A model generated the notes under the pieces. That model was given only the letters and a program-made list of their open reading frames with translations, was not told where the DNA came from and did no database searches. Position numbers and translations under genes: made by a program. From IMG/VR virus record IMGVR_UViG_3300045988_159790: 64,000 bases of DNA. One strand, written 5' to 3'. The DNA comes from a virus. Below are positions 21,374 through 24,374 of the stretch, piece by piece; positions within the stretch are counted from its first letter, which is position 1; each line of letters starts with the position of its first letter.

Positions 21374-22035
21374 TTATTCAGCATTATACATTGCTTCTTC
21401 GCCATAATCTTTTAAGAATTTTTTTCTATAAATAACATTCTCGCCCATAAGCTGATTAAAAAGCTGATTAGCAATATTCACATCTCCAACTTTAATCTGT
21501 CTAATAATACGAGTTTCTGAATTAGTCAAGCATTCCTCGGTTTCATCTTTATCCATTTCTCCGAGACCCTTCATTCTTTTTACTTCATATTTTTCTCCTA
21601 AATGATTATTACGATATTCTAATAACGCAGCATCATCTTTAAGATATTGATATGATTTTCCATTTTTTTCAATTATTCTATAAAGTGGTGGAACGCCTGC
21701 ATAAACATATCCTTCAGTAATCAATTTTGGACATAAGTTCCAACAGAAGGTATAAAATAAGTTTTTAATATGGCTTCCATCAATATCAGCATCGCTCATA
21801 ATAATGATTTTTCCATATCGTAACTTTTTCATATCATAAGTGATTTTATTAGTTTTTATATCAAAACTCCATCCATCTTCTCCAAAAAATGCGGATAGCA
21901 TAGTAACAATTTCTGCGTTTTTCATAATCGCGGCGATGGTTGCTTTTTCACAATTAAGAACTTTTCCTCGTACAGGAATTACTGCTTGATAAGTTGCATT
22001 TCTAGCTAACTTTAAATTACCAGAGGCACTATCCG
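21374..22035 (-). CDS. type IIA topoisomerase subunit B (GyrB/T4 gp39-like), exon 2 (Toprim domain)
   Basis: Reading upstream of track ORF start gives [43 protein letters not shown] = GyrB [31 protein letters not shown]; then IIMSDADIDGSHIKNL and PPLYRI. Confidence 0.7.
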
Positions 22036-23108
22036 TGTGCCTCCTATGTTTCCATAGGCACTGACTATCTCTTCGCTCCGACTTGTCAAGTCATCAACGC
22101 GTCCTCCATTTCCACTTTTGTATCAATAAAAAGTGTACTGCGGGTCTCACCCCACATAGTCGATACAGCTTATTCTATATCTTTATATGTATGTCGAGTA
22201 ATAATGTTGTATATAGTACTCCAACTTACATCTGGTGCGTATTTTAACTGCACCTCTTTTGGACTTAAACCACTATCATAATCTTTTCTCATCTGTATTA
22301 CGGTTTCTTTTGAAAACTTTCTTTTGTTATTAGAAGCTATTTCAGAAGAATTTGCTTTCGCTTGATGAGAATGCCAATATTTATTTTCTTCAGTGTGATA
22401 TTCCGGATGAATATCCTTCCAAGTATCGAACCACCAAACTTTTTGCAATCCTCTTTTAGATATTTTATCTTTATATTTCTCAAAAACATCTTTAAAAGGA
22501 ATATGTGAATTATAACATTCTCTAATATCATAAACATCTTCTCTAGTTAATAATGCACGACCATTTTTTTCACCAGACTGACCTCGATTTGGATTATCAT
22601 CGCCACCTTCTGTTGCATTATAACCATTTTTATAAGAATCATAATATTTAATGAAATACTTTTCTAAATCATCTAATATTTGTTTAGAATATTCTTCTTT
22701 TGATATTTCTACAATTACCTCATAAGAAAAATTTTCTAATCCATATTTTCTAATAGCTTGATGAAATTGACTATTGTAATCTTTTGCATTTTTGTTGAAT
22801 GCAGAAGATTTATGTGCATATCTACGCTGTTCTAAGTCAATACTCTGTCCGATATAAATTTTGTGGTTTATTTTATTTTGATATTTATAAATTCCAATCA
22901 TTTACACTGTCTCCTTTCATTTATATTAAAAGGTGATAGTGTTTTAATTATTTATTTTTGTCCAAAGATATAAAATCTTGCCACGGGATTGACTTCGCCT
23001 AAACATATTTTGACTTATATGTGTAACGGTCAGCTTTCCCCGTTAGCCGCATATTTATGCGACCCCGCTGATAAACGGTAAGAAGGATTCGGGCAATAGT
23101 TTTCACTT
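22036..23108 (-). mobile_element. group I intron interrupting topo II B-subunit gene at the EGDSAGG Toprim motif
   Basis: Exon 1 ends ...ITEG with last nt U (ggt) then in-frame TGA; exon 2 resumes DSASGN after an intron-terminal G; GC-rich structured segments 22036-22169 and 22902-23108 flank a GIY-YIG ORF. Confidence 0.6.
22170..22901 (-). CDS. GIY-YIG homing endonuclease (intron-encoded)
   Basis: MIGIYKYQNKINHKIYIGQSIDLEQRRYAHKS canonical GIY-YIG; AAAGGAG RBS. Confidence 0.8.
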   Translation of the reverse strand: MIGIYKYQNKINHKIYIGQSIDLEQRRYAHKSSAFNKNAKDYNSQFHQAIRKYGLENFSYEVIVEISKEEYSKQILDDLEKYFIKYYDSYKNGYNATEGGDDNPNRGQSGEKNGRALLTREDVYDIRECYNSHIPFKDVFEKYKDKISKRGLQKVWWFDTWKDIHPEYHTEENKYWHSHQAKANSSEIASNNKRKFSKETVIQMRKDYDSGLSPKEVQLKYAPDVSWSTIYNIITRHTYKDIE

Positions 23109-24374
23109 ACCCTCAGTGATATAAATTTCACAAAGTTCACGGCTTTCGCTACTTGCATCAGCTAACTTACTGTCAAATTTTAAAACTTTTTTCTTTTTCT
23201 CTTGTTTGTTTCTAACAGTTTCTCTAGCCTTTTTCGCAGCTTCTCTAGCCTTACGAGCATTTAACGCTTTATCTGCAATTCCCTTAATGTCTTTCTCATT
23301 TGCAGCAAGCCAACTTTGTAAATTTTCAGATATCACACTTGTGAAAGGAGTCATATCAATCTTTACAATTCTACTTTTAGTCTGTGCATCATAAGAGATG
23401 TTAGGAGCAGTTATATTAAAAGCTATAAGCAATCCTTCTTGTATATCATCACCTGTCAAATTATCATCTTTTTCTTTTAACCAATTCTTTTCTCTAAAGA
23501 ATTTGTTCATCTCTCTTGTAATAATTGTCTTTATCTGTGTAATGTGAGGACCTGCATCTGTCTCTCCAGTATTAACATACGATATAATATTAGAGCTATA
23601 TTTATCTGTATAAGTTAATACTAAATCAAGTTTATTCTTTCCATTTTCATAGTTAATATTTAATCTATTTTTTAATATCTCACTATCTCCTGCAATATCA
23701 TTAAGTAAATCATTTAATCCATTTTTAGAAAAATAGGAAATGTGAGCATCTGTTTCTTTTTCTATTAAATTGATTGTTAATCCAGGGCATAAACAAGTTA
23801 ATACATGAAATAACTTTTTAAGTCTTTCAGTATCTATAGCCGCACTTGTAAAAAACTCCTCACTTGGTTGCCATGATACTATTGTTCCGGTGTGATGATT
23901 TCCTTGATTCCCTAGAACTCTCTTCTTGAATACTCCTTCAACAAACTGAACTTCTTCCATTTTTCCATCACGATAAGAAGTTACTGTAAGCCAATGACTT
24001 AAATAATTTGTTAATTTACTACCTATACCATTTAGACCAAGAGCAGTTCCTTCATAAACACCATCATCAGAAAACTTACCAGATGTATTTAATACATCAA
24101 AAGAAGCCTGTAAAACGGTCTCTCCATCATCTCTTAATGAATTTATCGGAAATCCTTGACCAAAATCTTCTACTGTGCAACTTCCATCTTTTGAATAAGT
24201 GACATTAATAATATCTCCATGTCCTGCTTTATGCTCATCAATTGCATTTGATACAATCTCTATCACGAGTTGAGTAGAATATTCTGTACTACCACAATAT
24301 ACACCAGGTCTAAGACGAGTAAACTCAAGAGGTGTTTTACTTTGTATAGAATCCGCATCATATAATTTGCTCAT
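23103..24374 (-). CDS. type IIA topoisomerase subunit B, exon 1 (GHKL ATPase + transducer)
   Basis: LEFTRLRPGVYCGSTEY...LVIEIVSNAIDE matches GyrB N-terminus LEHVRKRPGMYIG...EVVDNSIDE; ends ELCEIYITEG. Confidence 0.8.
   Translation of the reverse strand: MSKLYDADSIQSKTPLEFTRLRPGVYCGSTEYSTQLVIEIVSNAIDEHKAGHGDIINVTYSKDGSCTVEDFGQGFPINSLRDDGETVLQASFDVLNTSGKFSDDGVYEGTALGLNGIGSKLTNYLSHWLTVTSYRDGKMEEVQFVEGVFKKRVLGNQGNHHTGTIVSWQPSEEFFTSAAIDTERLKKLFHVLTCLCPGLTINLIEKETDAHISYFSKNGLNDLLNDIAGDSEILKNRLNINYENGKNKLDLVLTYTDKYSSNIISYVNTGETDAGPHITQIKTIITREMNKFFREKNWLKEKDDNLTGDDIQEGLLIAFNITAPNISYDAQTKSRIVKIDMTPFTSVISENLQSWLAANEKDIKGIADKALNARKAREAAKKARETVRNKQEKKKKVLKFDSKLADASSESRELCEIYITEGK

Follow-up and report, generated by a model that had tools for sequence, protein, structure and literature searches.

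A topoisomerase gene that is called as three separate open reading frames (ORFs) may be divided into two genes, or it may be one gene whose message is restored by splicing. This question is raised by a 64,000-nucleotide stretch of viral DNA (IMG/VR record IMGVR_UViG_3300045988_159790), which in full is called the window here. On its minus strand, a GIY-YIG homing endonuclease ORF separates the two parts of a GyrB/ParE-like topoisomerase II subunit gene. Our results favor splicing. The 1075 nucleotides (nt) from 23108 to 22034 are very probably a mobile group I intron that belongs to the phage td/Twort (IA2-like) type and separates the Gly codon from the Asp codon in the EGDSA motif. The original prediction had read the insert as a group I intron, and this reading is supported by exact U and G ends, a guide sequence that forms P1 and P10, a covarying core, core strings like those of td and Twort, and a GIY-YIG ORF located in P6a. 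The predicted fold points to splicing, and mobility is suggested by family membership and by the population pattern.

The interrupted gene and the ends of the insert

24374..23109, minus strand: exon 1 of the GyrB/ParE-like topoisomerase II subunit gene, with the ATPase and transducer domains and the first Toprim residues up to ...ITEG; its last base, 23109, is U
23108..22034, minus strand: predicted group I intron, 1075 nt, with boundaries taken from the intron-less allele in L001; intron position p equals window coordinate 23109-p
23103..23105, minus strand: in-frame TGA, codon 2 of the intron (AAG TGA), in the P1 loop
22033..21374, minus strand: exon 2, with the remaining Toprim from DSASG... 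and the GyrB C-terminal domain
23109 joined to 22033, minus strand: predicted ligated junction ...ACUGAGGGU-GAUAGUGCC..., where exon 1 ends in ...TATATCACTGAGGGT and exon 2 starts with GATAGTGCCTCTGG...

Exon 1 ends in ...ELCEIYITEG with a GGT codon whose T lies at 23109, as had been claimed. The next codons are AAG and TGA, and the product of the called ORF (24374..23103) ends in ...ELCEIYITEGK*. The original prediction was thus right about an in-frame TGA but not about its following the exon directly, as one codon (AAG) intervenes. On the other side, the called exon 2 ORF spans 21925..21374 and its frame extends back to 22033, where it is preceded by a G at 22034; exon 2 can indeed be read upstream of its annotated ATG, after a terminal G of the intron. 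That ATG (21925), the first in exon 2, lies 36 codons past the junction without a Shine-Dalgarno sequence, and exon 2 has no in-frame ATG, GTG or TTG at or near the junction. The insertion point is the Gly|Asp codon boundary in the EGDSA motif of Toprim.

The boundaries are given by a close relative, L001 (IMGVR_UViG_3300014039_000016), in which the gene is uninterrupted and whose two flanks are 94.2% and 91.2% identical to the window. The blastn alignment of the two breaks exactly at 23109|22033, with zero bases common across the ends. Around the insertion site, the intron-less allele reads ...GAGATTTATATTACAGAGGGTGATAGCGCCTCTGGTAAC... L001 has ...GAGGGT|GATAGC...; as the last base of exon 1 is T and the first of the insert is A, and as G is both the last base of the insert and the first of exon 2, the ends are fixed and no sliding is possible. 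An earlier length of 1073 nt (22036-23108) is corrected by this alignment to 1075 nt. The window and L001 display a presence/absence polymorphism between close relatives, as expected of a mobile insertion. The ends of the insert had also been described as GC-rich. In its non-coding parts, G+C content amounts to 36% on the 5' side and 48% on the 3' side, as against 28% for the ORF and 32% for the window.

Joining the exons yields a product of 641 amino acids (aa). In Pfam, exon 1 corresponds to DNA_gyraseB and HATPase_c, and exon 2 to Toprim (from profile position 9) and DNA_gyraseB_C; both exons have open frames and conserved catalytic motifs. The joined product is collinear from end to end with ParE of S. 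pneumoniae (4juo_C, E = 2e-112), with no gap at the junction. Since it aligns gap-free with ParE and GyrB structures across EG|DSA, the claim that the junction restores the GyrB EGDSA motif holds.

Predicted fold of the intron RNA

23091..23100, minus strand: internal guide sequence 5'-ACUAUUGCCC-3', pairing with both exon ends (P1 and P10)
intron 13-18, minus strand: P1, UUGCCC with exon 1 GGGU and intron AA; U•G at the splice site
intron 9-14, minus strand: P10, ACUAUU with exon 2 GAUAGU; pairing of guide and 3' exon
23082..23087 (intron 22-27), minus strand: P3 5' strand UCCUUC, pairing with 22102-22107; 3/6 pairs compensatory, recovered by RNAalifold
23078-23065 (intron 31-44) and 23063-23046 (intron 46-63), minus strand: hairpins a and b, between the P3 5' strand and J3/4-P4; 2/4 and 5/7 pairs covary
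22983..23043, minus strand: P4 ACGGGG/UCCCGU (intron 66-71/121-126, preceded by UAA), J4/5 AAA, P5, P5a, P5b and J5/4 CAA; from RNAalifold and the model
22967..22982, minus strand: P6 5' strand GGC and P6a 5' strand AUUUUAUAUC (intron 133-142), pairing with 22167-22181; 8/10 pairs of P6a covary
22167..22181, minus strand: P6a 3' strand GAUAUAGAAU (intron 928-937) and P6 3' strand GCU, overlapping the ORF end and stop codon
22157..22161 (intron 948-952), minus strand: P7 5' strand GACUA, within the invariant GCUGUAUCGACUAU, pairing with 22063-22067; predicted guanosine-binding helix
22156-22139, minus strand: P7.1, 5/6 pairs covary; a peripheral element typical of subgroup IA
22135-22113, minus strand: P7.2, 6/7 pairs covary, invariant loop UAUUGAUAC; likewise typical of subgroup IA
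22102..22107 (intron 1002-1007), minus strand: P3 3' strand GGAGGA, from covariation and RNAalifold
22074..22101, minus strand: P8, outer helix CGC/GCG and inner hairpin GACUU-GAC-AAGUC, from RNAalifold
22063..22073, minus strand: J8/7 AAGAGA and P7 3' strand UAGUC (intron 1042-1046), matching the Rfam consensus gAAGAUAUAGUC
22034..22061, minus strand: P9.0 GUG/CAC (2/3 pairs covary), P9 hairpin with GAAA loop (4/6 pairs covary) and the terminal omega-G 22034 (position 1075)

The group I topology is complete, with all helices present in canonical order, including the P3/P7 pseudoknot. Core strings in P4, P6, P7, J8/7 and P9 resemble those of T4 td and Twort: P4 is invariant in the family, td and Twort have the same 5' string of P7, CGACUAU, and CGACUA ... 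AAGAGAUAGUC (P7 and J8/7) agrees with td, Twort and the RF00028 consensus AGACUA ... gAAGAUAUAGUC. The U•G pair of P1 is present in 13/14 aligned rows, the exception (L051) being an alignment shift with the same GGGU/GCCC pairing. In P10, ACUA/UAGU, 88.7% of cells are paired and one pair is compensatory. The 3' strand of P9.0, CAC, is the 3 nt directly before the terminal G; a G ends all 11 homologous copies, and its position at 22034 is fixed by the intron-less allele.

Among the features by which subgroup IA2 is recognized, P7.1 and P7.2 between P7 and the P3 3' strand are present as two covarying hairpins, and an arrangement in which P1 is followed by P2 (and P2.1) and P3 leads straight into J3/4-P4 was not found in the element. 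On this basis we place it among group I introns with an IA-type periphery, without a firm assignment to IA2.

Three pairings considered during modelling were rejected. The first guess for P3, GCGGG/CCCGC, used strands that both belong to local covarying hairpins; a first register of P5, UGAC/GUCA, was replaced by the covarying GCU/AGU, a correction that came from RNAalifold; and the hairpin-a loop AUCA was considered as a partner of UGAU before P8, a pairing that is broken, as judged by eye, by L010 and by UGAA variants.

We also observed that the invariant P7.2 loop UAUUGAUAC (22113-22135) is complementary to the invariant J6/7 GUAUC (22162-22166), both on the minus strand, and that UAUUGGUAC loop variants in other family members keep this complementarity by means of G•U. 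The two segments may form a tertiary pairing, a candidate for which one side is fixed by the search pattern.

Covariation and the points against the fold

The model comprises 94 pairs in 18 helices and was evaluated in an alignment of 14 homologous copies with the ORF cut out. Two controls were used, one in which the 3' partners were shuffled and one in which they were slid by 1-3 columns. Standard pairs filled 97.6% of cells, as compared with 85.1% after shuffling and 35-42% after sliding. Pairs changed on both sides numbered 49/94 (24.5 when shuffled and 8-14 when slid). The covariation score was 0.409, against 0.150 for the shuffled control, in which 0/500 reached the observed value, and 0.04-0.07 for the slid control; as the 14 sequences are related, the shuffled control overstates significance and the slid control is the fairer of the two. 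RNAalifold, blind to the manual model, recovered P1, the long-range P3, hairpins a and b, P4-P6a, P7.1, P7.2, P8 and P9, and added the outer helix of P8. In the window copy, all 92/92 pairs of the first model are standard by a programmatic check, as are the six added pairs by inspection.

The kinship of the aligned sequences is one of several points that weigh against the reading as a group I intron and call for some caution. Both P4 and P7 are invariant in the 14-copy set, and covariation is uninformative for them. The layout departs from that of td and Twort, with only 3 nt and no P2 between P1 and P3, and with two hairpins (23078-23046) between P3 and the UAA-P4 segment. Splicing and endonuclease activity are predictions from sequence. 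Finally, the Rfam group I model RF00028 (Intron_gpI) found no match in the window at 21300-24500 with E <= 1, nor, at its gathering score, in 17 related loci (105 kb, at least 20 family copies).

With regard to kinship, the slid control is decisive for the RNA fold. Moreover, the unusual hairpins a and b are conserved and covary across the family, and are thus under selection.

The negative Rfam result has to be read against controls. The gathering score of RF00028 is 50 bits, which is a curated score cutoff and not a biological defining feature. The proven td intron of T4 reached 40.3 bits, below this threshold, and the Twort introns scored 100.9, 97.4 and 63.6 bits. Matches within the present family surfaced only with very short search ranges and spanned 15-38 bits: 17.2 bits (E = 0.017) for the 3' half of the window copy alone, on the minus strand; 15.3 bits (E = 0.14) for the copy in Lactococcus phage LW81; and 37.8 bits (E = 2.4e-8), covering the whole model, for the ORF-less copy of L112 alone. 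In this last match P4-P6, P7, J8/7 and P9 were aligned as in the manual model, and P2 and P3 were mis-aligned. An Rfam search at E <= 10 on L088, L089 and L093 gave chance matches only. The Intron_gpI search proposed earlier for 22036-23108 failed as specified, in a setting in which the proven td intron also stays below threshold. The missing match reflects low sensitivity of the model, as the controls demonstrate, and the likely cause is the architecture, with P3 3 nt after P1 and hairpins between P3 and J3/4.

The endonuclease gene

22901..22170 (intron 208-939), minus strand: GIY-YIG homing endonuclease ORF, 243 aa, in the P6a loop, its last codons forming the P6a 3' strand
22895..22950, minus strand: hairpin burying AAAGGAG and the AUG of the endonuclease ORF, -13.6 kcal/mol, z = -3.86 relative to shuffles

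An internal GIY-YIG ORF with its own ribosome binding site had been proposed, and both parts are confirmed: the Pfam model PF01541 (GIY-YIG) scores 26.6 bits where the cutoff is 22.6, and a Shine-Dalgarno sequence, AAAGGAG, lies 7 nt before the ATG. The protein matches the homing endonuclease families phrog_7168 (E = 1e-29) and phrog_314 (E = 5e-20), the latter being the family assigned to the I-TevI gene of T4. Its N-terminal 100 residues align with the I-TevI catalytic domain (1LN0/1MK0, E = 1e-5). The GIY, YIG and NGYN motifs are kept, together with two catalytic residues, the Arg and the Glu mutated in 1LN0/1MK0; the conserved Tyr, Arg, Glu and Asn by which GIY-YIG enzymes are recognized are all present. 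The C-terminus, residues 184-241, gives weak helix-turn-helix matches (phrog_517, E = 3e-5; phrog_125, E = 2e-4).

Segments complementary in the manner of the hairpin that buries the ribosome binding site were also seen by eye in relatives. Delayed translation and a buried ribosome binding site have reportedly been described for I-TevI in the td literature. Enzymes of the I-TevI type cleave some 23-25 nt ahead of the place where the intron inserts. Since the end of the ORF forms a strand of P6a, translation by the ribosome and folding of the ribozyme would compete, as in td.

Relatives and retargeted family members

Scanning viral contigs with exon 1 returned 80 loci, in most of which the gene is uninterrupted; L001 is the closest. 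Homologous inserts occupy the same codon boundary in 11 other loci, after ...GAGGGT and ending in G before GAY/AAT AGT GC, with the same guide sequence and an in-frame stop at most 8 codons into every copy. The insert ORF is intact in L082 and L089, and frameshifted or truncated in L010, L084/85, L086, L088, L051 (78 aa), L090/91 and L187. The L112 insert, 301 nt in length and situated at the same codon boundary, has no ORF at all, and its P6a is closed by a 7-nt loop. Endonuclease ORFs that are intact, decayed, truncated or absent form the pattern of a homing-endonuclease life cycle. As an element of the L112 type has no coding capacity and still interrupts the gene, it is no free-standing endonuclease gene and must leave the RNA if the protein is to be made.

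Further members of the family, recognized by their P4 and P7 strings, were found at three other sites of the same gene, in its Toprim and C-terminal region:

D-A|D-V-D-G site: L082, L084; 5' exon end GCU; guide UUGGC
DADV|DG site: L009, L020, L022, L072, L088, L112; 5' exon end ACGU; guide GCGU
K-G|L-G-E site: L017, L039, L076, L088, L089, LW81; 5' exon end AAGGGU; guide GCCCUU

At every site the guide is complementary to the local exon end, with the last exon U opposite a G. Even within the K-G|L-G-E site, L088 has the exon end AGGGGU with the guide GCCCCU, as opposed to AAGGGU and GCCCUU in the others. Such retargeting of the guide, as read from these alleles, is what a working group I ribozyme would require. 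Three introns, two of them ORF-less (about 250 nt), are found in the single GyrB-like gene of L088. The insertion sites at DxD fall within the same metal-binding region of Toprim that is split by the MobA/bypass cassette in T4.

The 3' core (GCUGUAUCGACUAU, P7.1, AGUA, P7.2 with the UAUUGAUAC loop, AAGAnAUAGUCAG and P9) was also seen in dozens of IMG/VR contigs (among L100-L212). Since it precedes many different 3' exons, the intron family is widespread and not gene-specific. Motif scans found no further family copies elsewhere in the window, and a megablast search of 50,697 phage records with the region as query gave no match. With the 3' core as query, blastn matched four records weakly (E = 0.1); following up two of these gave Lactococcus phage LW81 and Enterococcus phage EF1.

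The EF1 record (MF001358, L214) contains a family member at about 1560-2555 of the locus, with the P4 string at 1647 and the P7 string at 2380. A 'hypothetical protein' coding sequence (CDS) lies inside the element, which is flanked by a 'DNA polymerase III alpha subunit' CDS and another 'hypothetical protein', and it probably splits a polymerase gene.

L001 has an insertion of its own, 1.3 kb in length (L001 1670-2995, corresponding to about 27375-27384 of the window), with a 315-aa ORF bearing LAGLIDADG-type motifs (2008-2955). It splits a PhoH-like ATPase gene that is intact in the window (28177..26960), and close relatives therefore differ in which genes have been invaded.

Proposed course of splicing and homing

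24632..24660, minus strand: sigma-70-type consensus promoter (TTGACA, 17 nt spacer, TG-TATAAT; 12/12 matches), upstream of the 74-aa ORF and exon 1
24603..24379, minus strand: 74-aa ORF preceding exon 1
19026..21359, minus strand: GyrA/ParC-like subunit gene (Pfam), immediately downstream of exon 2

We propose that the operon would be transcribed from the promoter at 24660-24632, and that ribosomes would halt at the TGA two codons into the intron, before the ribozyme core. Free guanosine bound in P7 would attack after U23109, at the U•G pair of P1, and the terminal G at 22034 would then occupy the same guanosine site. With both exons held by the guide through P1 and P10, ligation would give one mRNA and a 641-aa subunit with an intact catalytic motif. 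In mixed infections, the I-TevI-like enzyme would be expected to cut intron-less alleles of the L001 type, and repair off the intron-bearing genome would copy the intron in (homing).

Alternative explanations

Three alternatives were considered. According to the first, the insert is a remnant that no longer splices efficiently, being dead or dependent on a protein cofactor, so that the GyrB-like gene is a pseudogene or poorly expressed. Many relatives do have decayed endonuclease ORFs, and the unusual insertion between P3 and P4 and the sub-threshold Rfam scores could in principle mean degeneration. However, all modelled pairs are standard in the window copy, both exons remain open with their catalytic motifs conserved, the endonuclease ORF is of full length, and the downstream GyrA-like partner gene is intact; hairpins a and b, the very features that could suggest decay, are conserved and covary. 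We regard loss of splicing as improbable.

The second alternative is that a free-standing GIY-YIG endonuclease has split the gene into two subunit genes, with no splicing and with polypeptides that assemble after translation. There are parallels in genes 39/60 of T4 with their MobA element and in nrdA of Aeh1 with mobE, and phage topoisomerase II large-subunit genes split in Toprim by an endonuclease cassette still work (PMC2988022; bioRxiv 10.1101/2022.08.31.505936). The calling of three separate ORFs and the lack of an Rfam match on the whole region would also fit. Against this, exon 2 has no start at the junction, and translation from its first ATG would lose DSA...PVRGK. Exon 1 gains a single codon, whereas with MobA elements both halves are lengthened by conserved extensions of about 44 aa (bioRxiv 10.1101/2022.08.31.505936). 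The non-coding ends of the insert are conserved as an RNA fold that covaries and base-pairs with the ends of both exons, and an ORF-less copy of 301 nt is found at the same site in L112. The missing exon 2 start and the L112 copy leave the alternative raised with the original prediction, a split gene like T4 39/60, without support, and we consider it highly improbable.

An intein, suggested by the frequent occurrence of inteins in GyrB and other replication genes (PMC4760082), or a group II intron has next to no probability and is ruled out by sequence. Against an intein, the frame meets a stop past a single codon of the insert, and the internal ORF starts on its own. Against a group II intron, the insert begins with AAGUG and not GUGYG, has no reverse-transcriptase ORF, and gave no Rfam group II match in the region.

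Comparison with known systems

A group I intron that interrupts the GyrB-like gene thus remains the preferred reading, and phage genes of DNA metabolism have been known since T4 to harbor group I introns with GIY-YIG endonucleases. The kind of element is not new; the features of some interest are a layout that escapes Rfam and the repeated colonization of Toprim in one gene. Text searches, in which coverage of subscription papers was incomplete, returned no report of a group I intron in a phage gyrB/topoisomerase II gene. IA2 is reported to be the main viral group I subtype (PMC11835236), and gut jumbo phages are rich in group I introns (PMC12880540).

The td intron of T4 (subgroup IA2), with I-TevI, is similar in that a phage intron lies in a gene of DNA metabolism, where it separates two codons within a conserved catalytic motif, with an in-frame stop right past the 5' splice site (GGU|UAA in td). 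P4 (ACGGGG/CCCGU), P7 (CGACUAU...AUAGUC) and J8/7 are near-identical, P7.1 and P7.2 are present in both, and in both a GIY-YIG ORF is looped out of P6a, its end overlapping the core; the ribosome binding site is buried here and reportedly also for I-TevI. The host genes differ, however, being GyrB-like here and thymidylate synthase in td, and the present intron lacks P2 between P1 and P3, inserts hairpins a and b between the P3 5' strand and J3/4, has its own P7.2 loop, UAUUGAUAC, and has a short 3' end with P9.0 and P9 only. The window endonuclease resembles I-TevI in the catalytic domain only (E = 1e-5).

The Twort orf142 introns (IA2, crystal structure 1Y0Q) share an IA core with P7.1/P7.2 and a P9 hairpin with a GAAA loop. 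They also occur several to a gene, and relatives of the window have up to three in the GyrB-like gene. Unlike the present family, they score 64-101 bits with RF00028, possess P2 and P2.1 before P3, and have P3 running straight into J3/4.

MobA of T4 (39/60, with a 50-nt translational bypass) is likewise a homing-endonuclease element within Toprim of a phage topoisomerase II large subunit. Its enzyme is of the HNH type, and the outcome there is two extended polypeptides and ribosomal bypass without splicing, whereas in the window a ribozyme is predicted to restore a single ORF. The T4 insertion lies near the DxD metal site and that of the window at EGDSA, although relatives of the window do have family introns at DxD.

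A cultured phage, Lactococcus phage LW81 (KY554777, L213; 58338-58627, locus 2317-2618), carries the same intron family in the homologous gene. Its intron shares the GGGU|AAG...GCCC guide, the two hairpins, the UAACGAGG P4, CCUGUAUCGACUAU, the UAUUGAUAC loop and AAGAAAUAGUCAG; it differs in being ORF-less (about 300 nt) and in occupying the K-G|L-G-E site. In the record, 'subunit B of ATP-hydrolyzing DNA topoisomerase' is given as two CDS (LW81_101, LW81_102), and the gap between them is not annotated as an intron.

Other features of the window

The scan for terminator-like sites on the minus strand found none in 21300-24750, which covers exon 1, the intron and exon 2. Away from the topoisomerase locus, a c-di-GMP-I riboswitch aptamer (RF01051, 62.3 bits, E = 8e-10) is located at 44604-44677 on the minus strand. 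Directly downstream of it is a 307-aa ORF (44611..43688), which by eye resembles a secreted CAP/SCP-type protein; next comes an ORF of 441 aa (43637..42312) that has a membrane anchor at its C-terminus. An ORF upstream of the aptamer (46197..44722) by eye resembles a TROVE/Ro-type protein. The minus strand also carries an array of 20 tRNA genes over 46808-63946 (Rfam RF00005, 42-68 bits).

Implications

The locus should be annotated as one spliced GyrB/ParE-like protein and not as two fragments and an endonuclease, and the same applies to its relatives and to at least one record from a cultured phage. As a whole family of these introns stays below threshold in Rfam, even without an ORF, surveys based on RF00028 will undercount them.

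It is possible, though we put this forward tentatively and with some doubt, that the family is a distinct and widespread IA-type variant, so far unmodelled, which is missed by Rfam. In comparison with td and Twort it would be set apart by the lack of P2 before P3, by two hairpins between P3 and J3/4, and by an invariant P7.2 loop complementary to J6/7. If this were true, many 'split' essential phage genes, including those of cultured phages such as LW81, would be unrecognized intron-containing genes, and at least four positions in the Toprim region of one topoisomerase gene would have been colonized through retargeting of the guide.

Within Toprim, the most conserved DNA of a phage topoisomerase (EGDSA, DxD and KGLGE) has been targeted repeatedly by homing elements, and this lineage would use a ribozyme where T4 uses a split gene and translational bypass. 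Together with the copies in which the endonuclease is intact, decayed or lost, the pair formed by the window and L001 provides a natural series for the homing cycle.

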